Source: Pseudomonadota bacterium
Lineage (GTDB): Bacteria > Pseudomonadota > Alphaproteobacteria > Rhodospirillales > Magnetospirillaceae
Assembly (NCBI GenBank): GCA_021782815.1
Contig: JAJXUO010000009.1
Span: 17,889 to 81,888 of the forward strand
Length of the DNA stretch: 64,000 nt
Direction of reading: 5' to 3'
In this document: positions 21,494 to 44,062 of the stretch, in pieces
Numbering within the stretch: position 1 is the stretch's first letter
Layout of the letters: the number at the start of each line of letters is the position of its first letter
Notes under the pieces: model-generated
What the model was told of the DNA's origin: nothing
Databases searched by the model: none
What the model saw: the letters and a program-made list of their open reading frames with translations, nothing else
Program-made: the position numbers and the translations under genes

Positions 21494-21523
21494 CAGGGCA
21501 ATCGGCTTCGCCCGATTGCCCTG
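21494..21523 (+). promoter_or_regulatory. Perfect 12-bp stem-loop in the leader of the binding-protein gene
   Basis: CAGGGCAATCGG (21494-21505) pairs with CCGATTGCCCTG (21512-21523) across a 6-nt loop, 25 nt upstream of the proposed GTG start. Confidence 0.5.
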
Positions 21524-21548
21524 TGATCTGCGCAGACGGGAGGTGGAC

Positions 21549-22667: not shown

Positions 22668-22689
22668 CCGGGACCGCGCGACATGCGGG

Positions 22690-27284: not shown

Positions 27285-28150
27285 CGCCCCCCTCCTCCCG
27301 CAAACCTCTGCCGGCCCATGTGGTGGTGACCGGGAATGAGAAAGGCGGCTCGGGCAAGACCACCGTCGCCATGCATCTGGCCGTCGGGCTGTTGCATCTT
27401 GGCTTCCGGGTGGGCTGTATCGATCTCGATTCCCGCCAGCAATCCCTGGCCCGCTACATTCAGAACCGCCGGGATTGGATCGAAGAGCACCGCCTGCCCC
27501 TGGCCATGCCGGAGAGCGCGGTCATCACCGCCAGCGCCGCCGACTCGCGGCAAGACGCCGTCCGCGAGGAGCAGGAGGCCTTCGCCCAGGCCCTGGCCGG
27601 ATTTTCCCGAAGCTGCGATTTCGTCATTATCGACTGCCCCGGATCGGATTCACCGTTGGCGCGCACGGCGCATATGTTCGCCGATACCCTGATCACCCCC
27701 ATCAACGACAGCCTGCTGGACCTTGATTTGATTGCCCGTCTCGATCCGGTGGATTGGCAGTTGCGGGGGGCCGGCGTTTATTCCGATCTGGTATGGACGC
27801 TGCGCGGCAAGCGCCGCGCCGAGCGCCGCACCGGGATCGACTGGGTGGTGACCCGCAGTCGCGTCGGCGCCCTGGCCGACCGCAACAAGCAGAAAATGAC
27901 CGAGTCCTTAAATCGTATCCAGCAGGTGCTCGGGTTCCGCCTGGCCGAGGGATTCGGCGAGCGCATCATCTACCGCTACCTGTTTCTGTGGGGGCTGACG
28001 GTGCTTGATCTGCGCGGTGCCGGGCTGGATATCGAAATGACCCGTTCCCATCTGGCGGCGCGCCAGGAGGTTCTGGCCCTGATCCGCATGTTGTGGCTGC
28101 CCAATGTGGATGAACGGCTGGATCGTCTGCTGGCCGAGAACCCGCTCTGA
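27281..28150 (+). CDS. ParA-superfamily ATPase of the MipZ type
   Basis: ATG at 27281 gives 289 aa. Deviant Walker A VVVTGNEKGGSGKTT. IDLDSRQQSLARYIQNRRDW, IIDCPGSDS, TPINDSLLDLD and WVVTRSRV give a MipZ-like layout (recalled from Caulobacter MipZ). Confidence 0.85.
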   Translation: MTPPSSRKPLPAHVVVTGNEKGGSGKTTVAMHLAVGLLHLGFRVGCIDLDSRQQSLARYIQNRRDWIEEHRLPLAMPESAVITASAADSRQDAVREEQEAFAQALAGFSRSCDFVIIDCPGSDSPLARTAHMFADTLITPINDSLLDLDLIARLDPVDWQLRGAGVYSDLVWTLRGKRRAERRTGIDWVVTRSRVGALADRNKQKMTESLNRIQQVLGFRLAEGFGERIIYRYLFLWGLTVLDLRGAGLDIEMTRSHLAARQEVLALIRMLWLPNVDERLDRLLAENPL

Positions 28151-28167: not shown

Positions 28168-28644
28168 TCAGAACAGCACATCCTCCTCTTCGTCCGCCGT
28201 TTCGTCCGCCGCCTCGCCCTTCAGGGCGGCGCTCAGGCGCTTGCGCCAGGCCGCCAGGGTGACCGCCTCTTCCTGACGGCGGCACCATTCGGTCCAATCG
28301 GGCGGCGCGCTGCCGTCGTCGGCCAGGCCGCAGGTTTCGGCCACCTCGGCCTGCTGGCGCAACAGTTCACCGATGACGCTGGCGATCTGCTGCAATTCCT
28401 GGCGGCGCCGGTCCACGCTTTGCAGACGGACCACCAGTTGGGTGATGTCGCCCTGCAGGGTTTGATCGCCGCGCCGCCGGGCGTCCTCGGCCAGCCGCGA
28501 CAGCACGCCGGCGGCGCCGTCGGTGCTGTCCTCGAAAGCCAGCCCGGTGGCTTCCAGCTCGGCGGCCAGAAAAGTCAGCAGCCGTCGTTCGAACTGGGCG
28601 AAATCCCGCCAGCGTTGCACCGGCGGTTTGGTTTCGAGGCTCAT
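28168..28644 (-). CDS. Hypothetical protein, terminal gene of the che operon (158 aa)
   Basis: ATG at 28642-28644 overlaps the cheB stop (ATGA). Helical, with an acidic C-terminus ending EEEDVLF. No family recognised. Confidence 0.65.
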   Translation of the reverse strand: MSLETKPPVQRWRDFAQFERRLLTFLAAELEATGLAFEDSTDGAAGVLSRLAEDARRRGDQTLQGDITQLVVRLQSVDRRRQELQQIASVIGELLRQQAEVAETCGLADDGSAPPDWTEWCRRQEEAVTLAAWRKRLSAALKGEAADETADEEEDVLF

Positions 28645-29711
28645 GACGGCACTCCCTTGCGTCCCGGTTCGCTGCACAGGCGCAGGATTTCCGAGGGGAT
28701 CAGCGGTAGCGGCAATTCAAACTGAACGGCGCCCAGCTCTTTGGCGGCGCGCGGCATGCCGTAGACCACGCAGCTGGATTCGTCCTCGCCGATGGTGGCG
28801 GCGCCGGCCTGGCGCATGGACAACAGGCCCTGGGCGCCATCGCGCCCCATGCCGGTCAGGAGAACCCCCACGGCGGCGGCGCCGCACATCTCGGCCACCG
28901 AGGCGAACAGCACATCCACCGAGGGCCGATGGCCGCTGACCAGGGGGCCGTCATGCAGGCAGGTGACATAGCTGGCGCCCGAGCGCCGCACCGTCAGATG
29001 ACGGTCGCCGGGCGCGATATAGACATGGCCGAACATGATGGGCTGGTTGTCCTCGGCCTCGCACACCGAAACCGCCGCCATGCCGTCGAGGCGCTGGGCG
29101 AAGCTGGCGGTGAATTTCGGCGGCATGTGCTGGGTGACCACCACCGGCGGGCTATCGGCGGGCAGAACGGTAATGATGTCGCGCAGCGCCTCCACCCCGC
29201 CGGTGGAGGCGCCGATGGCCACCAGGCGGTTGTTGGTGCGGTAGACGTCGGCCACGCGGGTTTGCGGACGGGCGCGCTCGCCCAGGGCGCGCACCCGGGC
29301 GCGGGCGGCGCTTTTCACCATTTCCACCAGTTGCGGCCCCATTTCGGCCAACGTGCGGCTTTCACCGGCGGCGGGTTTACAGAAAACATCGACGGCGCCG
29401 AGTTCCAGGGCCCGCAGGGTCACATCGGCGCCGGTCAGGGTCAGGGTCGAGACCATGACCACCGGCATGGGATGCAGGCTCATCAGCCGTTCCAGAAAGG
29501 CGATGCCGTCCATGCGCGGCATTTCCACATCCAGGGTCAGGACGTCCGGATTGAGCGCCTTGATCTTTTCACGCGCCACATAAGGGTCGGGCGCCGTGCC
29601 CACCACCTCGAGGGCGGAGTCGGCGGCCAGCAGGGCCGAAATCATCTGCCGCATCAGCGCGGAATCGTCCACCACCAGGACGCGGATGCGGTTGGAGGGC
29701 GCCATGATCAT
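28641..29711 (-). CDS. cheB: Protein-glutamate methylesterase/glutaminase CheB
   Basis: REC (RVLVVDDSALMR...VLTLDVEMPRMDG) plus esterase domain (IGASTGGVEAL, HMPPKFT, GMGRDGA). Confidence 0.95.
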   Translation of the reverse strand: MIMAPSNRIRVLVVDDSALMRQMISALLAADSALEVVGTAPDPYVAREKIKALNPDVLTLDVEMPRMDGIAFLERLMSLHPMPVVMVSTLTLTGADVTLRALELGAVDVFCKPAAGESRTLAEMGPQLVEMVKSAARARVRALGERARPQTRVADVYRTNNRLVAIGASTGGVEALRDIITVLPADSPPVVVTQHMPPKFTASFAQRLDGMAAVSVCEAEDNQPIMFGHVYIAPGDRHLTVRRSGASYVTCLHDGPLVSGHRPSVDVLFASVAEMCGAAAVGVLLTGMGRDGAQGLLSMRQAGAATIGEDESSCVVYGMPRAAKELGAVQFELPLPLIPSEILRLCSEPGRKGVPS

Positions 29712-30346
29712 CCGAACAACTCGACTTCGCCTTCCACCGGCGTTTCCTGCAACTGCCGGCGGTAGCTGATTTCGCGGGAGAGAACGGCCTGCTCGATTCC
29801 CTTACGCAGGAACAGTCGCACCACCTTACCAGTTTGAGGAAAAAAGTGAATCCTTCGCGGATGGCGGCCGCCCAGATCCTCGGCCGCGATCGCCAGCTGC
29901 TCCTCGTCCAGGTAGCGGCGGACGAAATCGGCGTTGCGCTCGCCGATGGCCAGGGTACCGCCGCTGTCTCCCATGGAGGCGAGGACATTGGCGCCGCCGA
30001 ACACCTTGATCTCCAGACGGTCGCGCTGCCCGCCCCGGCGCAGGACGTCGTTCAGCAGCGCTTCCATGGCGTAATTGCCGTAGCGCCGCGACCGGGTCAC
30101 CGGTCGTCCTTCCTGTTCGTTGGATTCCGGCAGCATGAAATGATTCATGCCGCCGATGCGGACGACCGGATCCCACACGCAGGCGGCCACGCAGCTGCCC
30201 AGCACCGTCACCACCATTTCGTGGGGATCGCGCGAGACGTAATGTTCGCCGGGCAGCACCTTGACCGCCATCAGCTTGAAGGTGGGGTCGAACCAGCGGC
30301 GGCGGTTCTCCTCCGCTGCCGGCAGGCGGGCGGCGCAGCCGGTCAT
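29708..30346 (-). CDS. cheD: Chemoreceptor glutamine deamidase CheD
   Basis: ATG at 30344-30346 overlaps the cheR stop (ATGA). VTVLGSCVAACVWD and GGMNHFMLP motifs. The 544-aa ORF 29708..31342 is a read-through artefact. Confidence 0.9.
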   Translation of the reverse strand: MTGCAARLPAAEENRRRWFDPTFKLMAVKVLPGEHYVSRDPHEMVVTVLGSCVAACVWDPVVRIGGMNHFMLPESNEQEGRPVTRSRRYGNYAMEALLNDVLRRGGQRDRLEIKVFGGANVLASMGDSGGTLAIGERNADFVRRYLDEEQLAIAAEDLGGRHPRRIHFFPQTGKVVRLFLRKGIEQAVLSREISYRRQLQETPVEGEVELFG

Positions 30347-31182
30347 GGCAGCCGCCGGTAGGCGGTCTTGCCCGCCACGTCGAAGCGTTCGGAAACGCCG
30401 ATCAGGGATTCGGCATGGCCCAGGAACAGCAGGCCGCCCGGCCTCAGGCAGTTGGCGTAGCGGTCCACCAGGGCGCGCTGGGTCTTCTTGTCGAAATAGA
30501 TGGCGACGTTGCGGCAGAAAATGACGTCGAAGAGGCCTTTCATCGGCCAGGGTTCCAGCAGATTGAGACGGCGGAAACGGATGCATTCGCGCACCTCCTC
30601 GGCAATCTCGAGGTATCCCTCCTCGTCCTCGACGCCGAGGAAACGGCGGCGGTAGCCGGGAGGCAGACGCTGCGTCGATTGGGCGGAATAGCGGCCCCGG
30701 GCGGCGCGGTCCAAAACGCTGGTATCGATATCCGTGGCCAGAACCAGGGCGTCGCGGCGCTGCGCCGGCGAGAGCGTATCCACCAGGGTCATGGCGATGG
30801 AGTAAGGCTCCTCGCCCGTCGAACAGCCCGCCGACCAGATGCGCAGCCGTCCGGGTCCGCCCGGCCGGGCGGCCAGGCGCTTCAGTTCCCCGGTCAGCAG
30901 GGTGAAATGATGCGGTTCGCGGAAAAACTGGGTGATGTTGGTGGTGATGGCGTTGACCACATGCTCCAGTTCGGACTCCGGATCGGCCTCCAGCAGGGCG
31001 CAATAGTCCTTGAAGTCGTCGAGGCCCAGGGCCCGCAGCCGCTTGACCATGCGTCCGCGCACCATCTCGCGCTTGTTGTCCGGCAGAACGATGCCGGTAT
31101 GCGACGACAGGAAGGCGGAGAGAAATTTGAACTCCTTGCTCCGCAGCGCGAAAAGCTCGTCGTTCCCGTGGGGATGGGTCAT
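30343..31182 (-). CDS. cheR: Chemotaxis protein methyltransferase CheR
   Basis: IWSAGCSTGEEPYSIAM SAM-binding motif, FCRNVAIYFD. Confidence 0.95.
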   Translation of the reverse strand: MTHPHGNDELFALRSKEFKFLSAFLSSHTGIVLPDNKREMVRGRMVKRLRALGLDDFKDYCALLEADPESELEHVVNAITTNITQFFREPHHFTLLTGELKRLAARPGGPGRLRIWSAGCSTGEEPYSIAMTLVDTLSPAQRRDALVLATDIDTSVLDRAARGRYSAQSTQRLPPGYRRRFLGVEDEEGYLEIAEEVRECIRFRRLNLLEPWPMKGLFDVIFCRNVAIYFDKKTQRALVDRYANCLRPGGLLFLGHAESLIGVSERFDVAGKTAYRRLP

Positions 31183-31199
31183 GTTTTTCCGTGGATCCG

Positions 31200-31694
31200 T
31201 CAGGCGGCGTCCTGGGCCACGGTGTCGGCCAGCAGCAGCTTCTCCAGGTCGAGCAACGCCACCATGCGGCCCTCCATATTGACCAGCCCCGACAGGAATT
31301 GCGCGTCCTTGCGATGTTCGAATTCGGGCAGCGGCTGCACATCGGTGACCGCCACCGTCAGGATATCGGCCACCGCATCCACCAGGACCCCCATGATGCG
31401 TTCCTTCATGCTGACCACCATGATGACATGGTGCGCCGAAGGCTCGGTCATGGTGCCCGAAAAGCGCATGCGCAGATCGAACACCGGCACCACCGCGCCG
31501 CGCAGATTGATCACGCCGCGAATATGCCGGGGCACGTTGGGCAGCGGCGTGGCCGGTGTCCAGCCCTTGATCTCGCGGATCTCCATGATATCGACGCCAT
31601 ATTCCTCGGCGCCGATGGTGAAGGAGATGAACTGCCGCATCTCCTGTTCCCGGGAGTCCGTCGTTGCCGTTTCCATCGCCGTTTCGGATGTCAT
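31200..31694 (-). CDS. cheW: Chemotaxis coupling protein CheW
   Basis: FISFTIGAEEYGVDIMEIREIKGW...RGVINLRGAVVPVFDLR. Confidence 0.95.
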   Translation of the reverse strand: MTSETAMETATTDSREQEMRQFISFTIGAEEYGVDIMEIREIKGWTPATPLPNVPRHIRGVINLRGAVVPVFDLRMRFSGTMTEPSAHHVIMVVSMKERIMGVLVDAVADILTVAVTDVQPLPEFEHRKDAQFLSGLVNMEGRMVALLDLEKLLLADTVAQDAA

Positions 31695-31713
31695 GCCACA
31701 GTCCTCTCGTTTT

Positions 31714-33840
31714 TCACTCGGCCGCCAGGGGCGCGGTGCCGCCGCCGTCGCGGTCGCCCTCGGCTTTCAGCGCCCCCACATCCAAAATCAGGGCCACGCG
31801 GCCATCCCCCAGGATGGTCGCGGCGGAGACGCCGCGCACCGGGCGGAAGTTGGATTCCAAACTTTTGATCACCACCTGCTGCTGGCCCAGCAACTCGTCC
31901 ACCAGCAGGCCCACGCGGTCGCCGCCCTCGGTTTCCACCACCACCACCAGGCCCTTGGTGGGATCGGTGACGGCCCCTTCCACGTTGAACAGGCTATGCA
32001 GGGCCACCAGCCGGATATATTCGCCGCGCAAGGTCAGCATGTTGCCCACATTGACCAGGGCGTGGGTCTGTTCCGGCTTGGGGCGGATGCTTTCGACGAT
32101 ATTGGTCAGCGGCAGCACGTAGCGTTCGCCGCCTACCGCCACCAGCATGCCGTCCATCACCGCCAGGGTCAAAGGCAACGACATGATGAAGCGCGCCCCC
32201 ACACCGGGTTGGGACTGCACGCTGACGCGGCCGCCCACATCCTGGATGTTCTTGCGCACCACATCGAGGCCGACACCGCGTCCGGAAACGTCGGACACCG
32301 CGGCGGCGGTGGAAAAACCGGGCGCGAAGATCAGTTGATCGATCTGTTCGTCGCTCAAGGTTTGACCGCGCTCCACCAGCCCCTTTTCGATGGCTTTCTC
32401 CAGCACGCGGCGGCGGTCGATGCCGTGGCCGTCATCCTCGATCTGAATGATCACGCGGCCTGAACGGTGTTCGGCGCTGAGATGGATGGTGCCTTCCGCC
32501 GGTTTGCCCCGGGCCGCGCGTTCCTCGGGCGTTTCCAGCCCGTGATCGAGGGAGTTGCGGATCAGATGCACCATGGGATCGGACAATTGTTCGATCACGG
32601 TTTTGTCCACCTCGGTGCCCTCGCCGCTCATCACCAGACGCACCTGCTTGCCCAGACGCGCCGAGAGATCGCGGACGATCCGAGGCGCGCGCGAGAACAG
32701 CGTCTTGATGGGCTGGGCGCGGATGGCCATCACGCTTTCCTGCAACTCGCGGGTATGGTGCGACAGTTCCTGCAGGCCCATGAACAGTTCCGGGTGGCTT
32801 TCCGCCGAGAAGCGGTTGGATTGCTGCCCCAGCATGGCCTGGGTGATCACCAGTTCCCCCACCATGTTCACCAGCCGGTCCACCTTGTCCAGCTCCACGC
32901 GGATCGAGGCGGTATGCACGCCGCCGGCGCCGGGTTTGTCCTCGGCCCTGAGGCGCAGCCCGCCCTCGGCGGGATGGGCCGCATCGGCGGGATGATCGAG
33001 GGAGACGGGATGATCGTCGTGCGCGGGCGCTTCGGGCGGCGGCGCGGCTGGAGCATGCGCGACGGCGGCGGGCGGGGCCGCGGGTTCCAAGACCGTTTCC
33101 GCGCCGACGGCCTCCACCGAGACCTCGGCGCAGTCTCCGGCCACGAATTCGAAGACGTCCAGAACCGCCTGGCGCCCCTGCTCCGTGGTGATGCGGAAGC
33201 TCCATGCGAGATAGGCGTCCTGGGCCGCGAGATCCTCGAGGCGGGCCGGCAGTCGCGTCAGATCGGCGCGGATGTCCAAGGCGCCCAGGCCGGCCAGTTC
33301 CCGCACCATCATCAGGGGGTCGTTGCCGGTGCGCAGCATGTTGGCGGCGGGCGTGAACCGGACCAGGAAGCTTTCCTCGCCCGATTCCGGGGCCGGCGCC
33401 GGTGTGGCGCTCGCCGCCGCCTTGGCATCCGCGCCGCCCTGGCCGGTCAGGGCGTTCAGCACCTGGGTCACGCGGTCGCCGTGGTCGGGCGGCAACACCA
33501 CACCCTCCTGGGCGGCGCGGACGAAGTCGCCCAGAATGTCGTTGCCGCGCACCAAAACCTCGGCCAGGGCGGGCGTCAGCCCCACCCGGCCCGAGCGCAG
33601 GGCGTCGAGAGCGGTTTCGAAAACATGGGCGAAACGCACCAGATCGGTGAAGGCGAAAGCGCCGGCGCCGCCCTTGATGGAATGGACGCACCGGAACACG
33701 GCGTTGCAGTCTTCCGGATCGTCGCTGCCCTCCTGCAGGCGCAGCAGACATTCCTCCGCCGTGATCAGCAGTTCGGCGCATTCCTCGAAATAGGTCGTCT
33801 TGAAGCGCGACAGGTCGTTCGTCGAGGACTCTTCGGTCAT
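31714..33840 (-). CDS. cheA: Chemotaxis histidine kinase CheA
   Basis: ATG at 33838-33840 gives 708 aa. Hpt (FRCVHSIKGGAGAF), dimerisation, HATPase (DDGHGID, SGRGVGLDVV) and a C-terminal CheW-like domain. Confidence 0.95.
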   Translation of the reverse strand: MTEESSTNDLSRFKTTYFEECAELLITAEECLLRLQEGSDDPEDCNAVFRCVHSIKGGAGAFAFTDLVRFAHVFETALDALRSGRVGLTPALAEVLVRGNDILGDFVRAAQEGVVLPPDHGDRVTQVLNALTGQGGADAKAAASATPAPAPESGEESFLVRFTPAANMLRTGNDPLMMVRELAGLGALDIRADLTRLPARLEDLAAQDAYLAWSFRITTEQGRQAVLDVFEFVAGDCAEVSVEAVGAETVLEPAAPPAAVAHAPAAPPPEAPAHDDHPVSLDHPADAAHPAEGGLRLRAEDKPGAGGVHTASIRVELDKVDRLVNMVGELVITQAMLGQQSNRFSAESHPELFMGLQELSHHTRELQESVMAIRAQPIKTLFSRAPRIVRDLSARLGKQVRLVMSGEGTEVDKTVIEQLSDPMVHLIRNSLDHGLETPEERAARGKPAEGTIHLSAEHRSGRVIIQIEDDGHGIDRRRVLEKAIEKGLVERGQTLSDEQIDQLIFAPGFSTAAAVSDVSGRGVGLDVVRKNIQDVGGRVSVQSQPGVGARFIMSLPLTLAVMDGMLVAVGGERYVLPLTNIVESIRPKPEQTHALVNVGNMLTLRGEYIRLVALHSLFNVEGAVTDPTKGLVVVVETEGGDRVGLLVDELLGQQQVVIKSLESNFRPVRGVSAATILGDGRVALILDVGALKAEGDRDGGGTAPLAAE

Positions 33841-33895
33841 GCTCGCGGACTCCGCAGGATGGTGGTCGGCAGATGGCAGGGAGGCACCAGGGCCC

Positions 33896-34261
33896 TTACG
33901 GGCAGACCTTGGCCACCACCTGCAAAAGCTTTTCGGGCGAGAACGGTTTGACGATCCAACCAGTGGCCCCGGCGGCGCGTCCCTCATCCTTCTTGCTCTG
34001 ATCGGATTCGGTGGTGAGAACCAGGATGGGCGTGCCGGCGTGACCGGCGGTGGCGCGGATGCGGCGGGTCAGGGTCAGACCGTCCATCTGCGGCATATTG
34101 ACGTCGGTAATGACGCAATCCACCTTTTCGCGGCCCAGCATCGACAGTCCTTCGACGCCGTTCACGGCTTCCACCACCTTGTAACCGGCGCCGCGCAAGG
34201 TGAAGGCCACCATCTCGCGCATGGTCTTGGAATCGTCAACAGCCAGAATGCACTTGGTCAT
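33896..34261 (-). CDS. cheY: Chemotaxis response regulator CheY
   Basis: ATG at 34259-34261 gives 121 aa. ILAVDDSKTMR, VITDVNMPQMDG, LTTE, VKPF. Confidence 0.95.
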   Translation of the reverse strand: MTKCILAVDDSKTMREMVAFTLRGAGYKVVEAVNGVEGLSMLGREKVDCVITDVNMPQMDGLTLTRRIRATAGHAGTPILVLTTESDQSKKDEGRAAGATGWIVKPFSPEKLLQVVAKVCP

Positions 34262-34289
34262 CTTAAATCCTCGTTCTCTCACGCACCGC

Positions 34290-34580
34290 TCAGGCGGCGC
34301 ACATCTCGGTCAATTGCGGGTCCAGCCCCAGCACATGAAAGGCCTTGCACAGGGCTTCGGAGGGCGAGAGCAGCCGCAAGCGGCCGCCTTGGGACCGGCA
34401 GTCCGCCGCCGCCGTCAGGAGAACCTGCAGACAGGCGGTGGAAACCCGGTCGACGGCGTCGCCCTCAAGCCGCACCTCCCCGCCGCCCCCCTGCCCCAGC
34501 CGCTCCAGCAGGGCTTGCCGGAGCGGTTCGGCGGCCGACAGATCCAGGATTGCCGGCAGGCTCAGCGCGGTCTCGGTCAT
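34290..34580 (-). CDS. STAS domain protein (anti-sigma-antagonist fold) within the che operon
   Basis: 96 aa. LDLSAAEPLRQALLE...VRLEGDAVDRVSTACLQVLLTAA...LRLLSPSEALCKAFHVLGLD. Confidence 0.8.
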   Translation of the reverse strand: MTETALSLPAILDLSAAEPLRQALLERLGQGGGGEVRLEGDAVDRVSTACLQVLLTAAADCRSQGGRLRLLSPSEALCKAFHVLGLDPQLTEMCAA

Positions 34581-34605: not shown

Positions 34606-37209
34606 TCAGAACTCTTCCCAATCGTCTCCGGCGGCCTTCTTGGCCAGGGCCGGACGCTTGGCCGGAGCCGGCTTGCTCTCCTTGGCGGAATGCAGCTTGT
34701 TCAGATGTTCGTGAGCGATGGCGGCCTTGGCCGGAGTCCGCGCCGGAGGGGCGCGCCGGGTTTCCACGGCATGGGCGCTTTCAGGCGCCACGCGGACTTT
34801 ACCGGTCTGGAAGAAGCCCATCAGACGGTCCAGTTCCTGGGACTGATCCTCGAGGGCGCTGGCGGCGGCCGAGCTTTCCTCCACCAGGGCGGCGTTCTGC
34901 TGGGTCATTTCGTCCATCTGGGTGACGGCGGCGTTGACCTGCTCGATGCCGTCGGCCTGTTCCTGGCTGGCGGCGGCGATTTCGGCGACGATATCGGCCA
35001 CCCGCTTGACGCTGCCCAGGATGTCGTCGAGGGTGGTGCCGGCCTTTTTCACCAGATCGGCGCCGCCCTTCACCTCGGTGGTGGACTGGCCGATCAGCCC
35101 CTTGATCTCTTTGGAGGCCTGGGCCGAACGCTGCGCCAGGCTGCGCACCTCCTGGGCCACCACGGCGAAGCCCTTGCCGGCATCACCGGCGCGGGCCGCC
35201 TCGACGGCGGCATTCAACGCCAGCAGATTGGTCTGGAAGGCGATTTCGTCGATCATGCCCACGATGTCGCCGATGCGCTGCGACGAGGCCTCGATGCGGC
35301 CCATGGCGGCGATGGCGTCCGAGACCACCTGCCCGCCCGAGGCGGCGACGTCGCGCGCCCCCGAGGCCAGCTGATTGGCCTGCTGGGCGTTGGCGGCGTT
35401 CTGCTTGACGGTGGCCGACAGTTCCTCCATGGAGGCGGCGGTTTCCTCAAGGGCGCTGGCCTGCTGTTCCGAGCGCTGCGACAGATCGAGATTGCCGGTG
35501 GCGATCTCGCCGGTGGCGCTGTTGATGGAATTGGCCGCCGCCGTGATGGTGTCGACCATTTCGAACAGCTTGTCGATGGTTCCGTTCAAAGCGCTTTTGA
35601 TCTGGGTGAAGGTGCCTTCGTAGTCCTGGGTCATCTTCTTGGTCAGATCGCCGGCCGACACCGCCTTCAGCACGTCGACGCATTCGGTCATGCCGCGCTC
35701 GTTTTCCATGCGGTTACGCACCATCTCGCTGACGTCGGTGGCGTATTTCACCACCTTGAAGGGCTTGCCGTTGAGATCGAGGATGGGATTGTAGGAGGCC
35801 TGGATCCACACTTCGCGGCCGCCCTTGCCGATGCGCTTATATTCCGCCGCCTGGTATTCGCCCCGGTTGAGGGTGGCCCAGAACTGCTGGTAATCGGCGC
35901 TGGCGCGGAAGGCCGGGTCGACGAAAATGCTGTGATGCCGTCCCTTGACCTCGTCCAGAGTGTAGCCCAGGGCGTTGAGGAAGTTTGGATTGGCCTCGAT
36001 GATGGTGCCGTCCATGTTGAACGAGATCACCGCCTGCGACTTGTTGATGGCGTCGATCTGGCCGGCATAATCGGCGTTGCGCAGTTTCTGCTGGGTGACG
36101 TCGGTGGCGAACTTCACCACCTTGAAGGGCTTGCCGTTGAGATCGAGGATGGGATTGTAGGAGGCCTGGATCCACACTTCGCGGCCGCCCTTGCCGATGC
36201 GCTTATATTCCGCCGCCTGGTATTCGCCCCGGTTGAGGGCGGCCCAGAACTGCTGATAGTCGGGGCTATTGGCGTAGGCGGCCTCAACGAAGATGCTGTG
36301 ATGCTTACCCTTGACCTCGTCCAGGGTGTAGCCCAAAGCGTTGAGGAAGTTGGCATTGGCCTCGATGATGGAGCCGTCCATGTTGAACGAGATCACCGCC
36401 TGCGATTTGCCGATGGCCTCGATCTGGCCGACATAATCGGCGTTGCGGATTTTCTGGCTGGTGACGTCGGTGGCGAATTTCACCACTTTCACCGGCTTGC
36501 CGTTGGCGTCGAGGATGGGGTTGTAGGAGGCCTGGATCCACACCTCGCGGCCGCCCTTGCCGATGCGCTTATATTCCGCCGCCTGGAATTCGCCCCGGTT
36601 GAGGGCGGCCCAGAACTGCTGATAATCGGGGCTGCTGCGATAGGCGGCCTCAACGAAGATGCTGTGATGCTTGCCGCGGATCTCGTCCAGGCTATAGCCC
36701 AGAAGGTCGAGGAAATTCTGATTGGCCTCGACCACCGTGCCGTCCATGTTGAAGGTGATCATGGCCTGGGACTTGCTGATGGCCTTGATCTGCCCGGCAA
36801 AGTCGAACGCCTGCTGGCGCACCGAGGCGTCGCTCCATTCCACCAGGGTGCCGGTGCGGCGGCCTTGGCCGTCGAACAGGGGCGTGCTGGTCAGATCGAA
36901 CTGGCGCGATCCCACCGTGATGCTGCTCTGATGCGGCGCGGTCAGGCCGTCCAGCAGGCGCCGCTGATGGCCGGGCGTCTGGTGGAAGATGTCCATGCTT
37001 TCCCCAACCAGGCGCGCGGCGGAGAAATTGGGCAGATCCTTCTGCATGTCGCCTTCGGCGTCGCGGAGGAAAGCCTTCATGGCCGGATTGACGTAGACGA
37101 TCATATGGTCCGCATCCGCCAGCATGACGTTGGTGGTCACTTTATCGAGTGCATCCAGCTTGGCCAGATCAACGGCGCCGGGGCGGTTGGACGACAGGAA
37201 AGAAAACAT
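34606..37209 (-). CDS. Soluble methyl-accepting chemotaxis protein with four PAS-type modules (three near-identical)
   Basis: ATG at 37207-37209 gives 867 aa. No TM segment. Three 122-aa PAS/PAC repeats, the MCP signalling hairpin ([33 protein letters not shown]) and a C-terminal DWEEF pentapeptide. Confidence 0.9.
35731..36828. repeat. Three tandem copies of a 366-bp unit inside the PAS-MCP gene
   Basis: The period of 366 bp is confirmed by ATGCGCTTAT at 35831, 36197 and 36563. The tract 35747-35873 recurs without mismatch at 36113-36239. Confidence 0.9.
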
Positions 37210-37278
37210 GGCGAAACCTTTTCTGCTAGACGTTGGCGGTCTTGGCATTGGACTGGAAAATTAAAAAACACATGTGAG

Positions 37279-37749
37279 TCAGGCCGCTGTGGCGCCGACG
37301 CTGTGCGCCGCGGCAATACTTTGGGAATCGAACAGATCGTCCAGCCCCAACAGGGTGACCATGCGCCCCGTCGTGATGACGATCCCTTGGATGTAATGAT
37401 TTTGCCCGTGATCGACCTCGGGAACCGGGCGGATCTCATCGGGCTGCACCGTCAGGATATCCACCACGGCATCCACCAGAATACCCAGCAGCCGTCCATG
37501 CACAGCCATCACCACCACCACATGCCGGGGCGACGGTTCCGTCAGGATACCGGTAAAACGGGCGCGGAGATCAAAAACGGGAACAATGACGCCGCGCAGG
37601 TTAATCACGCCGCGCATGGAGGCTGGCATTTCCGGCAATTCCGTCACCATGGTCCATCCTTTGATTTCCCGGATGGCCATCACATCGAACCCGTATTCTT
37701 CGGCGCCGATCGTGAAGGTGATGAATTGACGCCCACTATTCGTGGTCAT
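37279..37749 (-). CDS. cheW: Chemotaxis coupling protein CheW (second copy)
   Basis: FITFTIGAEEYGFDVMAIREIKGW...RGVINLRGVIVPVFDLR. 156 aa. Confidence 0.9.
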   Translation of the reverse strand: MTTNSGRQFITFTIGAEEYGFDVMAIREIKGWTMVTELPEMPASMRGVINLRGVIVPVFDLRARFTGILTEPSPRHVVVVMAVHGRLLGILVDAVVDILTVQPDEIRPVPEVDHGQNHYIQGIVITTGRMVTLLGLDDLFDSQSIAAAHSVGATAA

Positions 37750-37936: not shown

Positions 37937-39922
37937 TCAATCCCAGAGTTCATCCTCTTCAATCTGAGTATTTTGCTGGGTTTTTTCCGGTGTTTGTTCC
38001 GGGATTTCGGCGATCACCGTTTCCAGCCGGGCGGACTGCGCCGGAGTGGGGTGGAATTCCACATGCAGGCCCGCGGGAGAGAGCTGCACCACCACGGCCT
38101 CGAGGTGATCGACCCGGCCGATGGTGAGGTGCAGGGTATCGCCCACCGCCACACCGGCGGGTTTTTCGTTCAGGCAGGCGCCGCCCGGGGAAACGTCGGT
38201 CAGGCGCGCCTCCAGGGCGCGGTCGGCCAACTGCAGGCGCACCGGCCAGTCGACGGCCCGGCGCGGATGCTTGCGGCGGTCGTGCACCAGGGAATTGCGC
38301 AGCCGGTCCACCAGGCGATCGCTGATGGCTTCCATCTCGTGGCCGATGGATCCCACCACCGATCCCAGCAATACCGACATCTGTTCGGTTTCGGAGGTGG
38401 TGCTGGAGATGGTGGCCACGGCGTTGGAGACATCGCCGGCCGCCTGGGCCGCCACATCCGCCAGACGGGCGATCCGTTCCGCCGACTGTTCCTGCTCGGC
38501 CGCGCTGGACACGATGCCGCCCGACAGGTCCGATACCTCGCGCATGCCGGAATCGGTGGCTTCGATCAGGGTGACCGTGGCGGCGACGCCGGTCTGGATG
38601 GAGGAGATCCGGGTGGCGATCTCGCCGGTGGCCTTGGCCGTCTGATTGGCCAGGTTTTTCACTTCGCCCGCCACCACGGCGAAGCCCTTGCCGGCGTCGC
38701 CGGCCCGCGCCGCCTCGATGGTGGCATTGAGGGCCAGAAGGTTGGTTTGGGCGGCGATGTCGTTGATCAGCTGCACCACGTCGCCGATCTGGCGCGAGGC
38801 CTCGGCCAGGGCGGCAACCTCGGCCAGGCCGGCCTTGGCCCGCGCGGCGGTGGCGGTGGTGACGTCGAACGAGCGTTCGGCATCGGCGCGCATTTGCCGG
38901 ATGGCCTCCAGCATGGCCTCTCCGGCCCGGGCCGCCTGATCGATATTGCTGCGGGCGGTTTCCGAAGCGGTGGCGGCGCATTGGTTCTGCTGGGCGACGG
39001 AGGCCGATTGCTCGCGCAGGTTATCGGCCACATGTCCCAAGGTGGCCGAGCGCTCGCCCATGGCGCCCACGCCGTGGGCGATCTCGCCTTGCAGATCGGC
39101 CGACAGCGTGAAGAACATGGAGCGCAGTTCGGATTCGGAAGAGCGGCCGATCCGGTTCATCTCGGCCTGTTTGACCGCGGACAGGGCCGTGATGCCCTGC
39201 AGGATCCTGATCTGAAACAACAGGCCGTCCACGTCGGCCACCGGCGAGGAAAGCTTCAGCTCGTCGCCCTCCCGGTTGGCGAGAACGGCGTTGAGGGTCG
39301 CGCCGATGGCGGCCAGCGGCCGCATCACGGCGCGCTGCGCCCCCAAGAGCAGCAGTGCCGCCACGGCGGCGGCGGCGGCGATCCCGGCCGGCGCCACCCC
39401 TGGAGCGAACAGCGGGACGGCGGCACAGGCCAGGATCAGGACCAGTCCAAGCGCCAGCCAGCCCATTGCCGCCAGACCGCGGCGGCGCGGCACGCGCCCC
39501 GGTTGCTGGATGGCGTTGATGCCCAGGCTTTGAAAATAAGGGGTGTAAAGGCTGTCCTCGTTGATGGTGTGCCCCAGCAGCCAGTCGCGCACGAAGTCGA
39601 ACAGATCGTCGCCGATGGTGTCGGCGCCGCCCTGCTGGAAGGCCGTCTCCAGTTCCGCCAGCCGGGTCAGGGCGCGCTGATGACTTTGCGTATGTTCGGC
39701 GGCGGCGGGATAGTTCCATTTGGCGAACAGCGCCTCCTCGCGGGCGAAGTGGCTGGCGCAATGCTCTTGCAGACGCGCCAGGATCCGGCGCAGTTGCCGG
39801 GGATCGTCCCGGCGCTCGTTGGCGTCCCACAGGCTGTTCAGCAGCGTGATGATTTCGCGATGGTCGTCGTCGAACTCGGTAACACCGACGCTAAGGCCTT
39901 CAGACCAATCCAAAAAAGCCAT
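37937..39922 (-). CDS. Methyl-accepting chemotaxis protein with N-terminal hemerythrin domain and C-terminal PilZ domain
   Basis: ATG at 39920-39922 (GGGGGAG upstream) gives 661 aa. Hemerythrin motifs ([30 protein letters not shown]), 2 TM helices and the MCP hairpin ([33 protein letters not shown]). PilZ motifs RRKHPRR and DVSPGG. Confidence 0.9.
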
Positions 39923-40192
39923 GGGACTCCCCCTTTTTCTTCCTCCAGAAGATCGGTCCGGAACCGGGGTGCCGATGGTTTGCGCGGCACGCATTGGGTC
40001 GGAGTGTTGAAATTCTGAAGATGTATTTCCCTTAACACATTATGCGCGAAGGCGATGCTCAGCAAGACGTCGCGGATCGGGCCCGATTGGGCTGGCCCGA
40101 CGGAAGGGGCCTTGTTACAGTCGCCCTCTGCCCCGTAACGGCGCGCCCCTGCAGGCGCCCGGGACGGACCGTTTCGCAAGGATACTCAACGC

Positions 40193-42411: not shown

Positions 42412-42524
42412 ATTCGCAAATCGCAAGGCGCTCTTTTCGCAATTTGCGGCGCAGATCACGAAAAAAGCCGGAATGTTCCGCTTCCGGGCCGGAAAAAATC
42501 CCGTAATTCCGCGCCTCCGATAGT

Positions 42525-42540
42525 TGGCATGCTTCGTGCT
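42525..42540 (+). promoter_or_regulatory. Sigma-54-type -24/-12 promoter-like element (TGGCATG-N4-GTGCT)
   Basis: GG at 42526-42527 and GC at 42538-42539 have the canonical spacing. There are two mismatches to TGGCACG-N4-TTGCW. Sequence match only. Confidence 0.3.
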
Positions 42541-42609
42541 TTGTAGTGGGCATGTCCGCTCCGGGGAGTTCCCAACCCCCCAGCCCTACTCTCCGGCGCG
42601 TTCAAGACA

Positions 42610-42640
42610 GGGGCCTCCTTCGGGAGGCCCCGATGCTTTT
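42610..42640 (+). terminator. Intrinsic-terminator-like hairpin (9-bp GC stem, UUCG loop, U-rich tail)
   Basis: GGGGCCTCC-TTCG-GGAGGCCCC followed by GATGCTTTT, located about 90 nt upstream of the next start codon. Confidence 0.5.
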
Positions 42641-42730
42641 AAGCGGGGAAGCGCTCTATCAGAGCGCGGGAAATCGTATTATGCTGCGGCACACCGTGTT
42701 CAAAGCCGCGCGCCGAAGGGTTTCCCCACA

Positions 42731-44062
42731 ATGATTCATCTGGCCAATATTCTGATCGCCTCCGATGACGCCGTCTTTTGTCAGGACCTGTTGCGGATGG
42801 TGCGCGGATACGGCTATGTCGGCGATGCGGTGGCGTCGCTGACCGAGGCGGTGAACTCGACGCGCAACGAACATCCCGATCTGCTGCTGCTGGGGCCGAC
42901 CTTGGCCGGAGGATCGCCCCTGGCGCTGGCGCGAACCTTGCGCCAGGACGCGGCGTGCCAGGATATTCCCCTCTGTCTGCTGACGCACGCCTGCCCGCCC
43001 AGCGAAAAGCGGGCGGCGCTGGAAGCCGGAATCGACGACGTGGTGATCGCGCCGTGGTCCGACGACAAACTTCAGGCCCATCTGCGGCCGCTGGTGCGCA
43101 TCGCCACCATGTATGTGGAATTGCAGCAGCGCGCCGGGGCGGCCCACGGCATGGGCGTCCAGGCCGCCACCGCCGTGCCGCCGCTGGATCTGCCCGCGCG
43201 CTGTTCGCTGCTGATGGTCGGCGCCGTTGCGCCCGCCCTGCGAGCCGCGCTCGAAGGCGATGCCGTGGTGCAGGCCGCCGATCCCTTCGTGGCCGAGGGA
43301 TTGCTGGACGACAGCAACTTCGATGCCGCCATTCTGGCGCTGCCCGCCGATACCGACAGCGGCCGGATCCAGCCCTATCTCGATCTCTGCTCCCAACTGC
43401 GCAACAATCCCCGGCTGTTCAATCTGCCGGTGGTGGCCATCAGCGACGCCGCCGTCTTCGACGAAACCACCGCCTACCGCCACGGCGTCAGCGCCTTTTT
43501 CCCGGAACGGTTCGACCGCGACGATCTCAGGGTGACGGTGCAATCCCTGGTGCGCCGTCAGCGGCTGCGCTGGGCCATCCGCCAGGCCATCGCCCGCACG
43601 CAGGGCGAGGCCAGCCTGGACCGCGGCACCATCGCCTATTCCCGGGCCTTTTTCGACCGCTATCTGGCCGATCGCCTGGAGTTCGCCGCCCGGCACGGCC
43701 GCCATCTGGCTCTGATGTTCTTCCGGGTGCCCGATATCGAGGGGGTGCGCCAGCGTTTCGGCGATGAGGCGGCGGCGCATCTGCGTTTGCAGGTGTCGCA
43801 ATGGATTATCAGCCTCTTACGCGGCGAGGATCTGACCGCCCGCACCGACGAGAACGAGTTTTGCGTGGTGCTGCCCGATACCCCCCGGGAAGAGGCGGCC
43901 ATCGTCATGCATCGTATCGCCGGGGTGCTGGCCTATACCGATTTCGCCGTCAAGGATGTGTATCAACCGGTAAAGGTGTGGGTGCGGGTCGGCGCCTCGG
44001 ACTATCACCCCGGTGACGATGTGGCCGCCCTGGTGGGCCGCGCCCATCAGGAAATGCTGTAA
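42731..44062 (+). CDS. PleD/PopA-like REC-REC-GGDEF protein with degenerate active site
   Basis: ATG at 42731 gives 443 aa. There are two receiver-like domains lacking the phospho-acceptor Asp (LLLLGPTL, AAILALPAD). The GGDEF domain has DENEF in place of GG[DE]EF, with RGED (RxxD) five residues upstream. Confidence 0.8.
   Translation: MIHLANILIASDDAVFCQDLLRMVRGYGYVGDAVASLTEAVNSTRNEHPDLLLLGPTLAGGSPLALARTLRQDAACQDIPLCLLTHACPPSEKRAALEAGIDDVVIAPWSDDKLQAHLRPLVRIATMYVELQQRAGAAHGMGVQAATAVPPLDLPARCSLLMVGAVAPALRAALEGDAVVQAADPFVAEGLLDDSNFDAAILALPADTDSGRIQPYLDLCSQLRNNPRLFNLPVVAISDAAVFDETTAYRHGVSAFFPERFDRDDLRVTVQSLVRRQRLRWAIRQAIARTQGEASLDRGTIAYSRAFFDRYLADRLEFAARHGRHLALMFFRVPDIEGVRQRFGDEAAAHLRLQVSQWIISLLRGEDLTARTDENEFCVVLPDTPREEAAIVMHRIAGVLAYTDFAVKDVYQPVKVWVRVGASDYHPGDDVAALVGRAHQEML

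Follow-up and report, generated by a model that had tools for sequence, protein, structure and literature searches.

A rare chemoreceptor pairing an N-terminal hemerythrin domain with a C-terminal PilZ domain in an Aer-like layout

Introduction

Can a single chemoreceptor carry both an oxygen- or iron-type sensor and a binding domain for the second messenger c-di-GMP? The question is raised by a gene for a protein of 661 residues in the DNA stretch of 64,000 nucleotides analysed here (the window), which an earlier note had read as a hemerythrin-MCP-PilZ receptor and as a candidate for a new point at which oxygen and second-messenger state are integrated. The two ends of such a protein are known from separate receptors. 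In Desulfovibrio vulgaris DcrH the hemerythrin domain reportedly binds O2 (Xiong et al. 2000; Isaza et al. 2006), and in Azospirillum brasilense Tlp1 c-di-GMP is reported to bind to the PilZ domain, which tunes the aerotaxis response (Russell et al. 2013; O'Neal et al. 2017). A further receptor, A. brasilense Aer (AZOBR_p280026), consists of an N-terminal cytoplasmic PAS domain, two transmembrane (TM) helices, HAMP, MA and PilZ, and its PilZ domain is needed for normal aerotaxis (O'Neal et al. 2019, PMC6406031). Both the mechanism by which a C-terminal PilZ domain affects receptor output and that by which a hemerythrin domain signals to an MCP are poorly understood, and a 2026 review of aerotaxis calls DcrH signalling 'inadequately understood'.

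Results and Discussion

Gene structure and domain organization

The receptor gene lies within an open reading frame on the reverse strand (37937..39994), and the positions of its parts and of the genes which follow it are collected in Table 1. The earlier note had placed the start at 39922 (MAFLDW...), and this start is the right one, because all 20 of the 20 homologues begin at an equivalent methionine and a Shine-Dalgarno-like sequence is located 5 nt upstream. Independent public contigs also carry a called gene for the same 661-residue protein, identical throughout. Each of the three domains passes its Pfam threshold: Hemerythrin at residues 13-129 (56.5 bits, cut-off 25.3), MCPsignal at residues 321-513 (102 bits, cut-off 34.6) and PilZ at residues 548-634 (38.3 bits, cut-off 22.5). 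In the full-length AF2 model these appear, in order, as a four-helix bundle, a TM hairpin, a helix-loop-helix, a coiled-coil hairpin of 300 residues and a beta-barrel. The domains, their ligand motifs and the two TM helices with almost no periplasmic loop had thus been correctly described from the letters of the sequence, while the che operon headed by the gene and a conserved C-terminal tail had been overlooked.

Table 1. Positions in the window of the receptor gene, its parts and the downstream che genes.
Feature	Position	Strand	Basis
Hemerythrin-MCP-PilZ receptor gene, 661 aa (Hr-TM2-HAMP-like-MCP-PilZ-tail)	37937..39922	-	Pfam, ORF, collinear 21-member family
Shine-Dalgarno-like GGGGGAG, 5 nt 5' of the ATG at 39922	39927..39933	-	sequence reading
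Cytoplasmic bacteriohemerythrin four-helix bundle, residues 1-135	39518..39922	-	Pfam, NCBIfam, AF2, DcrH-Hr 2AVK
Membrane hairpin, residues 149-200 (TM1 ~149-172, TM2 ~178-200)	39323..39478	-	Kyte-Doolittle, AF2 helices
Divergent HAMP-like helix-loop-helix, residues 201-250 (16-residue AS1, connector, 12-residue AS2)	39173..39322	-	AF2
MCP kinase-control coiled-coil hairpin, residues 251-547, tip ~407	38282..39172	-	Pfam MCPsignal (PF00015) 102 bits, AF2
PilZ beta-barrel and C-terminal helix, residues 548-640	38003..38281	-	Pfam 38.3 bits, PDB profile matches, AF2, Foldseek
Disordered acidic linker ending EEDELWD, residues 641-661	37940..38002	-	pLDDT, family alignment
Receptor gene stop codon	37937-37939	-	
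cheW, next gene 3' of the receptor, 187-bp gap	37279..37749	-	Pfam CheW 126 bits
Soluble receptor (PAS x3-HAMP_2-MCP) with the canonical pentapeptide DWEEF at its end	34606..37248	-	Pfam, translation
Rest of che operon, STAS to 158-aa protein	28168..34580	-	Pfam; gene calls on same or orthologous contigs
STAS	34290-34580	-	Pfam
CheY	33896-34282	-	Pfam
CheA	31714-33840	-	Pfam
CheW (second)	31200-31694	-	Pfam
CheR	30343-31182	-	Pfam
CheD	29708-30346	-	gene calls and Pfam on same or orthologous contigs
CheB	28641-29711	-	Pfam
158-aa protein without family assignment	28168-28644	-	

Hydropathy and AF2 agree on the membrane hairpin. Kyte-Doolittle windows above 1.6 are centred at residues 157-175 and 178-191, the loop between the helices is only ~5-9 residues long (FAPGVAPAG), and basic residues stand beside both cytoplasmic sides; the predicted topology is therefore that of an N-terminal cytoplasmic sensor and a membrane hairpin without a periplasmic domain. 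Between the membrane and the signalling domain AF2 places one helix which ends at residue 214 and another which starts at 231, residues 215-230 being the loop that joins them. Residues ~186-282 gave no match to Pfam HAMP or HAMP_2, even at E<=10, and precomputed PF00672 matches are absent from all 21 family clusters. With gaps, the linker can be aligned to residues 201-242 of P0155, a relative without PilZ in which Pfam does recognise HAMP, and the conserved proline of AS1 is kept.

The signalling domain is modelled as an antiparallel hairpin of ~300 residues, with two long helices (231-406 and 408-547). Its tip motif is fully canonical, and a stretch of 31 residues around the tip is nearly invariant across the family alignment. 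A scan for the methylation consensus [ASTG][ASTG]xx[EQ][EQ]xx[ASTG][ASTG] gave a single strict match in the receptor (472-481) and none in 15 of the 21 family members; with so few strict sites, classical adaptation is uncertain for this receptor family.

The che operon and its surroundings

Both in the window and in a relative which is 83% identical, the receptor gene is the first of a complete che operon. The terminator scan returned no reverse-strand terminator-like site in the gap between the receptor gene and cheW. No sigma-70-like promoter was found upstream of the receptor gene, and no FixK/FNR-type box (TTGA-N6-TCAA) anywhere in the 64-kb window. The operon is not syntenic in A. brasilense, to which the only nucleotide similarity near the locus is that of mazG.

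Two neighbouring genes had been put forward as a c-di-GMP context, and at motif level both are what they were said to be. The REC-HD-GYP gene (22690-24207) has the HD, HHE and GYP motifs, and the REC-GGDEF gene at 42.7-44.1 kb is PopA/PleD-like, because its A-site is degenerate (DENEF) and its RxxD I-site intact. They were seen beside the receptor in the query lineage only, and are weak evidence. The 83% identical relative also has the PopA-like gene near its receptor gene, its fetched locus ending before the position of the HD-GYP gene.

Rarity and genomic contexts of the receptor family

How common is this architecture? Among the matches listed from a search of 5.8 billion proteins it is represented by 21 clusters (90% identity), and among 1.84 billion proteins by seven full-length representatives; it is rare rather than widespread. 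The 21 members are collinear and 32-83% identical, and the closest relative (83%) stems from a mine-drainage metagenome. A search with the N-terminal 250 residues gave no match, the alanine-rich TM segment having probably swamped the word index. The family-profile search of genome contigs keyed on the universal MCP tip motifs, so that the matches listed (at least 600) are mostly generic MCPs, and among them only L023 (residues 1-533, 41%) resembles a true member. When P0019, the member encoded by Azospirillum sp. A39, was compared by tblastn with 72,556 plasmids and chromids (PLSDB), no place covered at least 80% of the query, which suggests that the family is not carried on sequenced Azospirillum chromids. 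A different arrangement of the three domains (sensor-TM-HAMP-MCP-PilZ-Hr) was detected with local HMMs in only one of 254 fetched relatives, P0133; the combination of hemerythrin, MCP and PilZ has therefore arisen at least twice and is still rare.

Linkage to a che operon was found only in the query and its 83% identical relative, and in seven other contexts the receptor is an orphan. In three other lineages the receptor gene is followed directly, on the same strand, by a gene for a PAS-GGDEF protein or for a CBS-PAS-GGDEF-EAL protein; among these cyclases, two are orthologues with 56% identity. Such downstream GGDEF genes tie the receptor family to c-di-GMP turnover, and the PAS-GGDEF gene is a more telling conserved neighbour than the HD-GYP and PopA-like genes of the window.

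A putative oxygen- or redox-responsive sensor

The N-terminal domain matches the NCBIfam bacteriohemerythrin model NF033749 (105.2 bits, cut-off 84) and TIGR02481 (103.1 bits, cut-off 51.75); Pfam finds no PAS match in the receptor. The ligand pattern H, HxxxE, HxxxH, HxxxxD is complete, and the seven di-iron ligands (H21, H58, E62, H77, H81, H118 and D123) are invariant in the 21 family members. AF2 models the bundle as helices 15-36, 41-68, 74-97 and 105-132, with pLDDT mostly 80-90. The best relative in the PDB is DcrH-Hr (2AVK, E 3.3e-17), and in the printed alignment H77, H81, H118 and D123 coincide with the corresponding DcrH-Hr residues. Residue 119, beside the ligand H118, is threonine in the query and its closest relative and isoleucine in ~90% of the family and in DcrH-Hr, a substitution which could alter the O2 affinity or the autoxidation of the domain.

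The receptor is probably O2- or redox-responsive, with an output tuned by c-di-GMP, and combines an Aer-type topology with two intracellular inputs; this is the reading to which we give moderate confidence. By homology, the bacteriohemerythrin domain would bind O2 or switch redox state at its di-iron site. As there is no periplasmic domain, the change would probably reach the HAMP-like linker and the kinase-control hairpin by side-on domain contact, as in Aer. Gene context suggests that the hairpin tip would control the CheA encoded four genes downstream, via the CheW proteins of the operon, and that the receptor probably shares mixed arrays with the soluble PAS-MCP of the same operon.

Iron, redox state and NO are further signals that a hemerythrin domain can report. 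In another reading of the same receptor, c-di-GMP might modulate a sensor for iron or stress taxis, whose hemerythrin domain reports the availability of cytoplasmic Fe(II), oxidative stress (H2O2), NO or the general redox state. The sequence specifies a di-iron site and no more, and the ligand-pocket threonine shared by the query and its closest relative is compatible with a non-O2 input. Genes related to iron and oxidative stress are found near several family members: ferritin, TonB-ExbBD and PepSY_TM genes upstream of P0019, a Dyp peroxidase gene near P0003, a rubrerythrin gene near P0014, and FixG and FeS-assembly genes near P0017. However, the family as a whole does not keep these neighbours, the solved structure nearest to the domain is that of the O2-binding DcrH-Hr, the match to the bacteriohemerythrin subfamily is above threshold, and the partner encoded in the operon of the window is a soluble MCP rich in PAS domains, a type used for energy or aerotaxis. 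A non-O2 input is thus considered unlikely.

The PilZ domain and the C-terminal tail

Both motifs of the PilZ domain are intact. All three arginines of RRKHPR (R549, R550 and R554), which precedes the barrel, are invariant in the family, and in DVSPGG D576 is ~90% conserved, G580 at least 90% conserved and G581 invariant in the 21-member alignment, while S578 is replaced by glycine in four of the six members of an Azospirillum-labelled subgroup. That the seven di-iron ligands and RRxxxR stay invariant at 32-83% identity speaks for purifying selection at each of the two ligand sites. The barrel is modelled with a pLDDT of ~90. In a Foldseek search with this model, ranks 1-39 are all PilZ-domain proteins and all but three of those listed are c-di-GMP complexes, the best match being Alg44 (4RT1, E 1.5e-5). 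The PilZ profile likewise matches PilZ sequences in the PDB; the domains recovered by profile or model are those of Alg44, BcsA, MapZ, PA0012, YcgR, PlzA and MrkH, nearly all c-di-GMP-bound. Motifs, profile and fold therefore support a PilZ domain of the predicted c-di-GMP-binding type. By analogy with Tlp1 and Aer, c-di-GMP would bind via RRxxxR and DxSxxG and shift the signalling bias or the sensitivity of the receptor, and oxygen taxis may then be weighted by the motile-versus-sessile state of the cell. The dual input predicted in the earlier note, of an O2/iron-type sensor and a c-di-GMP binder, is supported as a prediction by the profiles, the invariant motifs, the modelled structure and the gene context.

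The barrel is followed by a tail which AF2 models with pLDDT <50 over residues 643-661. Across the family a hypervariable linker ends in D-[ILV]-[DE]-L-[WF] in 15 of the 21 aligned members and also in P0121, P0122 and P0154, the query tail (EEDELWD) being a slightly shifted version, while the Azospirillum-labelled subgroup is entirely without it. The pentapeptide tether for CheR and CheB, xWxxF, is of acidic character, and its positions 2 and 5 are aromatic (Ortega and Krell 2020), and only ~3% of Rhodospirillales receptors carry the canonical form. The tail studied here cannot be identified with the canonical pentapeptide, since the query ends in DELWD and the family tail has an aliphatic residue at position 2.

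The same tail is present in 36 of the 37 members of an unrelated family of short MCPs, one of which is encoded in this window.

The position of PilZ and tail bears on a second alternative, namely that PilZ acts on adaptation rather than on the kinase, and that the c-di-GMP-bound domain together with the tail would recruit or block CheR, CheB or another Che protein in cis. Pseudomonas aeruginosa MapZ reportedly binds CheR1 when loaded with c-di-GMP, and the Foldseek matches include the MapZ-CheR1 complex (5XLY, 5Y4R). Moreover, the PilZ domain occupies the usual place of a CheR/CheB tether. After it come a disordered linker and a conserved, acidic peptide which ends in an aromatic residue, recalling the acidic and aromatic character of canonical pentapeptides, and the peptide is also kept by the short MCPs. 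The lack of the defining aromatic residue at position 2, the shift of the query tail (EDELWD), its absence from the Azospirillum-labelled subgroup and the few consensus methylation sites all speak against this analogy-based reading, which is judged to be rather improbable. A bolder combination would have O2 acting at the hemerythrin domain and c-di-GMP, made by the PAS-GGDEF protein that several lineages encode directly downstream, at PilZ, with the loaded PilZ domain gating the tail. The tail would then belong to an unrecognised class of tethers with a non-aromatic position 2, shared with short sensor-less MCPs of the Rhodospirillales and recruiting CheR, CheB, CheD, CheY or the 158-aa protein. 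We hold this to have a small chance of being right; if true, the receptor family would be a self-contained two-input module which brings along its own source of the second messenger and a docking peptide of a new kind.

Finally, that the receptor feeds an alternative pathway (c-di-GMP, biofilm or development) instead of flagellar taxis, or is a non-signalling array component, is very improbable: although several family members adjoin GGDEF or GGDEF-EAL genes, methylation sites are poorly conserved and c-di-GMP-related response regulators occur in the window, the operon has a STAS-CheY-CheA-CheW-CheR core with CheD and CheB, resembles a chemotaxis cluster on a roseobacter plasmid and lacks any output domain of the kind typical for alternative pathways, the motif at the hairpin tip is fully canonical and invariant, and one member has a flagellar hook-associated gene nearby.

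Comparison with known receptors and implications

The closest analogue of the O2- or redox-responsive receptor favoured here is A. brasilense Aer, not Tlp1 or DcrH, and the query can be described as Aer-like with hemerythrin replacing PAS. [quoted passage not shown] They differ in the sensor, which is a di-iron hemerythrin, a putative direct ligand site for O2 or redox, in the query, and an FAD-type PAS domain with indirect energy sensing in Aer. The HAMP-like linker of the query is also too divergent for Pfam, and the query family has the additional conserved C-terminal peptide. Membership of the Aer type proper is rejected, as the layout is Aer-like but there is no FAD-binding PAS domain.

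Tlp1 likewise has a C-terminal PilZ domain on an MCP, but its N-terminal sensor is periplasmic and it lacks a dedicated domain for O2 binding, in contrast to the query with its cytoplasmic hemerythrin and no periplasmic domain. Many relatives retrieved by exhaustive search have a TM-HAMP-MCP-PilZ chassis in common with the query family (profile positions ~150-645). DcrH also fuses hemerythrin to an MCP and provides the closest solved relative of the query sensor; its hemerythrin domain, however, is C-terminal, after the MCP, and it carries a periplasmic domain as well as a canonical HAMP but no PilZ, whereas in the query hemerythrin is N-terminal and the C-terminus is occupied by PilZ. Two further groups have an N-terminal hemerythrin domain, membrane segments and an MCP domain and are collinear with the query through the signalling domain. 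These are P0052, P0056, P0126, P0141 and P0155, which lack both PilZ and tail, and the Hr-NIT-HAMP-MCP proteins of ~830-840 aa (P0022 and its relatives), which have a NIT domain and lack PilZ and tail. The latter resemble Magnetospirillum gryphiswaldense MCP-Hr2 in length and Pfam domain set. The two hemerythrin MCPs deleted experimentally in M. gryphiswaldense have no PilZ domain, and their single deletions caused no strong defect in aerotaxis, nor that of MCP-Hr2 in the swim halo, which implies that hemerythrin-MCPs need not be major O2 receptors. MapZ (PA4608) has the same PilZ fold and similarly feeds c-di-GMP into the chemotaxis machinery, but it is a stand-alone single domain which acts on the methyltransferase CheR1, whereas the query PilZ is fused to the receptor and any contact with CheR is hypothetical.

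No description of a fusion of hemerythrin and PilZ was found in the literature searched, in agreement with the claim that no characterised receptor combines the two. To call the receptor a new integration point of oxygen and second messenger is nevertheless an overstatement, because Tlp1 and especially Aer, both studied genetically, already link aerotaxis to c-di-GMP; the pairing is uncharacterised, while the principle is not novel. The architecture is thus rare but not conceptually new, and the gain is incremental, since c-di-GMP tuning of aerotaxis receptors is already established in Azospirillum. If its two inputs are indeed small, defined ligands bound by compact cytoplasmic domains, the receptor would offer a clean setting in which to study how a single kinase-control module integrates signals. 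Binding of O2 to a di-iron site that can be seen by spectroscopy and of c-di-GMP to a canonical PilZ domain could both be followed directly, which would make it cleaner than Aer, with its indirect FAD/redox input, or Tlp1, whose ligand is not known. In addition, the conserved non-canonical Φ-[DE]-L-[WF] tail on two MCP families may aid the annotation of adaptation tethers in the Rhodospirillales.

Gene, domains and fold

The earlier note had proposed that a hemerythrin domain, an MCP signalling domain and a PilZ domain are combined in one receptor, and all three exceed the Pfam gathering thresholds in the 661-aa product (table below); with the NCBIfam bacteriohemerythrin model the product reaches 105 bits, where the cut-off is 84. 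The proposed start is also correct, since an equivalent MxLxxW opens all homologues and a GGGGGAG ribosome-binding site is found 5 nt upstream. The identical product is annotated on several independent public contigs.

All seven of the claimed di-iron ligands (H21, H58, E62, H77, H81, H118 and D123) are present, and the nearest solved sequence is the hemerythrin domain of the Desulfovibrio chemoreceptor DcrH (2AVK, E 3.3e-17), which, as summarised in other papers, binds O2 with a redox-linked conformational change. Residue 119 (codon at 39566-39568), beside ligand H118, is Thr in the query and in its 83% identical relative; Ile is found here in about 90% of the receptor family and in DcrH-Hr. 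Two other DcrH-Hr entries in the PDB are variant sequences, and 3WAQ, for which the alignment is printed, differs from the wild type at I119 to E. The two predicted transmembrane helices correspond to hydrophobic helices at about 149-172 and 178-200. The loop of 5-9 residues between them and their basic flanks place the hemerythrin, signalling and PilZ domains all in the cytoplasm. The full-length AF2 model (mean pLDDT 75) consists of a four-helix bundle, the transmembrane hairpin, a helix-loop-helix (helix to 214, loop 215-230, helix from 231), an unbroken coiled-coil hairpin whose tip lies at 407, a beta-barrel (555-623) followed by a helix, and a disordered tail from 643. The segment following the second transmembrane helix gave no match to the Pfam HAMP model at E<=10. 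It aligns with the Pfam-recognised HAMP of P0155, a relative with an N-terminal hemerythrin and no PilZ, and the AS1 proline is kept; on this basis we describe the segment as a divergent HAMP-like linker.

Both c-di-GMP motifs attributed to the PilZ domain, RxxxR and DxSxxG, are present (R549, R550, R554, D576, S578, G581). In a domain-only AF2 model the barrel reaches a pLDDT of about 90, and its Foldseek matches at ranks 1-39 are exclusively PilZ-domain proteins (Alg44, BcsA, MapZ, PA0012, YcgR, PlzA, MrkH, VCA0042, MotI, Lpg0364). A profile of the C-terminal region of the family likewise matched PilZ domains in the PDB.

Rarity and origin of the architecture

A full-length search over 5.8 billion protein clusters yielded, among the matches listed, a family of at least 21 clusters (P0001-P0021) with all three Pfam domains and 32-83% identity to the query. 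Past these the score falls from 315 bits to 211, and the matches are MCPs that carry either hemerythrin or PilZ but not both. The 21 members are collinear from end to end and invariant in the seven hemerythrin ligands, the MCP tip, R549, R550, R554 and G581; G580 is kept in at least 90% and D576 in about 90%, and S578 is replaced by Gly in four of the six members labelled Azospirillum. The homologues are labelled as Magnetospirillum, as Azospirillum and as other alphaproteobacterial MAGs, besides two MAGs with the labels Actinomycetota and Bacteroidales; the nearest relative, at 83%, comes from a mine-drainage metagenome. For the frequency survey suggested in the earlier note, 1.84 billion representatives at 50% identity were scanned exhaustively with HMMER (E<=1e-30), which returned 43,286 MCP-like proteins, only seven of them full-length members (P0010, P0017, P0014, P0001, P0004, P0121, P0124), together with a few fragments; the domains of the newly found full-length members were borne out by Pfam. 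The architecture is real, rare and uncharacterised.

When the 254 relatives fetched to that point were scanned with local HMMs, a single further protein emerged, P0133 of the representative library (855 aa), arranged as N-terminal sensor, TM, HAMP, MCP, PilZ (563-647) and hemerythrin (712-832). Its different domain order implies that hemerythrin and PilZ were combined at least twice. Sister architectures comprise N-terminal hemerythrin-TM-HAMP-MCP proteins without PilZ (P0052, P0056, P0126, P0141, P0155) and TM hairpin-MCP-PilZ-tail proteins without hemerythrin (P0231, P0239), and the TM-to-PilZ chassis behind other sensors (Tlp1-like) is the sole part shared with many of the top relatives. 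The receptor recombines modules, each of which occurs commonly among Rhodospirillales receptors.

Genomic context

The receptor gene heads a complete same-strand chemotaxis operon both in the window and in the 83% relative, in the order receptor, CheW, PAS-MCP, STAS, CheY, CheA, CheW, CheR, CheD, CheB and a 158-aa protein. No terminator-like site was found on the operon strand within the 187-bp receptor-cheW gap. With the soluble PAS-MCP the operon has two candidate sensors for oxygen or energy, only one of which carries the classical adaptation tether. The 158-aa protein may, speculatively, be a CheZ/CheT-like accessory protein; its tail is acidic with a terminal aromatic, like the receptor tails. 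The convergence with mipZ is repeated in the mine-drainage relative, and a similar STAS-CheY-CheA-CheW-CheR core is present on a roseobacter plasmid. The che linkage is lineage-specific; a further seven members of the family are orphan genes.

Features in the window, in the receptor and in the fetched loci L086, L090 and L091
Feature	Position	Strand	Remarks
Hybrid PAS histidine kinase-REC	18686-21178	-	Signalling cluster 18686-24207
Periplasmic binding protein	21486-22667	+	Same cluster
REC-HD-GYP phosphodiesterase	22690-24207	+	Same cluster; HD, HHE, GYP motifs
CheY-like REC	24417-24791	-	After the cluster; short MCP follows
Second MCP, sensor-less, about 345-428 aa	24813-26099	-	Ends DTDIELF
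mipZ, MipZ-type division-site ATPase	26759-28150	+	Pfam MipZ 311 bits; convergent with che-operon end
158-aa protein, last che-operon gene	28168-28644	-	No Pfam family; ends EEEDVLF
Soluble PAS-MCP, second operon receptor	34606-37248	-	Three or four PAS domains; canonical pentapeptide DWEEF
Receptor gene, 661 aa	37937-39922	-	Genuine gene; mechanical ORF extends to 39994
Hemerythrin domain	residues 13-129		Pfam 56.5 bits
MCPsignal domain	residues 321-513		Pfam 102 bits
PilZ domain	residues 548-634		Pfam 38.3 bits
REC-GGDEF	42524-44062	+	Likely start near 42731; A-site DENEF (not GG[DE]EF); I-site RGED intact
CBS-PAS-GGDEF-EAL	L086 12096-14687	as receptor gene	113 bp after P0019 (Azospirillum sp. 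A39)
PAS-GGDEF	L090 2416-3729	as receptor gene	8 bp after P0010
PAS-GGDEF	L091 9243-10538	as receptor gene	250 bp after P0014

The HD-GYP and PopA-like neighbours noted earlier are real, as the motifs of both were found (the latter at 42.7-44.1 kb). The REC-GGDEF protein has its RGED I-site (RxxD) five residues upstream of DENEF, and this pairing of an intact I-site with a degenerate A-site suggests that it is probably a c-di-GMP receptor of PopA/PleD type, not a cyclase. Both genes were found near the receptor only in the query lineage; the 83% relative has the PopA-like gene, its fetched locus ending before the HD-GYP position. In three lineages among the orphans the next same-strand downstream gene encodes a c-di-GMP enzyme with PAS input. 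The cyclases following P0010 and P0014 are orthologues, 56% identical over their full length, which indicates that the receptor-cyclase gene pair is conserved. Of the contextual evidence, this recurring downstream enzyme speaks most strongly for a PilZ domain in active use.

C-terminal tails

The motif D-[ILV]-[DE]-L-[WF], preceded by a hypervariable acidic linker, ends 15 of the 21 aligned family members as well as P0121, P0122 and P0154; the query tail (37940-38002) is a shifted form, EEDELWD. A tail of the same kind closes the second MCP in the window; 36 of its 37 homologues (30-85% identity) finish in the four residues [IVM]-[EDQ]-[LM]-F, after variable linkers. A Φ-[DE]-L-[WF] motif is shared by the hemerythrin-MCP-PilZ family and these short MCPs without a sensor, which form an unrelated family. 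The other fetched loci contain 99 MCP ORFs; among them a tail of this type occurs once, in a protein that is itself a family member, and the canonical aromatic-x-x-aromatic pentapeptide three times; 43 of the 99 (alphaproteobacterial MCP genes, loci L001-L080) end in -AA, typically FLxxxRAA. PilZ-bearing relatives without hemerythrin (P0036, P0072, P0078, P0109, P0115) end in -RAA or -PAA. The -AA endings may resemble the ClpXP-dependent turnover signal at the C-terminus of Caulobacter McpA. In charge, placement and final aromatic residue the tail resembles the pentapeptide that tethers CheR/CheB. Its position 2, however, is aliphatic where the pentapeptide is defined by an aromatic, and for this reason it would escape published surveys.

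Proposed mechanism and comparison with known receptors

The closest characterised system is Aer of A. brasilense (PMC6406031). Its cytoplasmic N-terminal PAS is followed by two TM helices, HAMP, MA and, at the C-terminus, a PilZ with a conserved arginine pair; normal aerotaxis and the colonisation of roots both depend on this PilZ. The layout is alike, with hemerythrin where Aer has PAS; lacking a PAS domain, the receptor is Aer-like in working and not an Aer member. Only the MCP-PilZ half is shared with Tlp1, and only the hemerythrin, at the opposite end of the protein, with DcrH as other papers summarise it. The M. gryphiswaldense receptors MCP-Hr1 and MCP-Hr2, deleted experimentally, have no PilZ, and its PilZ-MCPs have no hemerythrin. 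A full-text literature search found no description of a hemerythrin-PilZ fusion, with or without a chemoreceptor. The integration logic is not new, as it has already been demonstrated in Aer and Tlp1.

We favour, with some reservation, a receptor of Aer topology with two predicted ligand sites in the cytoplasm. By homology to DcrH-Hr, the hemerythrin domain would be altered when the di-iron centre binds O2 or is oxidised, and the signal would reach the HAMP-like linker and the kinase-control bundle most plausibly by lateral contact, because the receptor is without a periplasmic domain. The tip would regulate the CheA of the che operon, and c-di-GMP at RRxxxR/DxSxxG would shift signalling bias or sensitivity, as reported for Tlp1 in summaries of that work; in A. 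brasilense Aer the PilZ is required for function. Against this mechanism stands the absence of a HAMP recognisable by Pfam. The presence of at most one strict methylation site in the receptor, and none in most relatives, counts against it or leaves it uncertain, as does the lack of a strong phenotype in single deletions of the M. gryphiswaldense hemerythrin-MCPs. T119 in place of the usual I119 beside ligand H118 adds uncertainty at the sensor, and the hemerythrin might report iron, redox state or NO instead of O2, which we regard as unlikely beside the O2-binding precedent of DcrH. Slightly less probable is a MapZ-like action of the PilZ domain via the adaptation enzymes, involving the C-terminal tail with its partial likeness to a tether; such a role is compatible with the Aer-like mechanism. 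Output to a non-taxis pathway, or a passive receptor, is improbable. To a specialist the Aer-like receptor would be no surprise, though it would be useful as a clean two-ligand model receptor.
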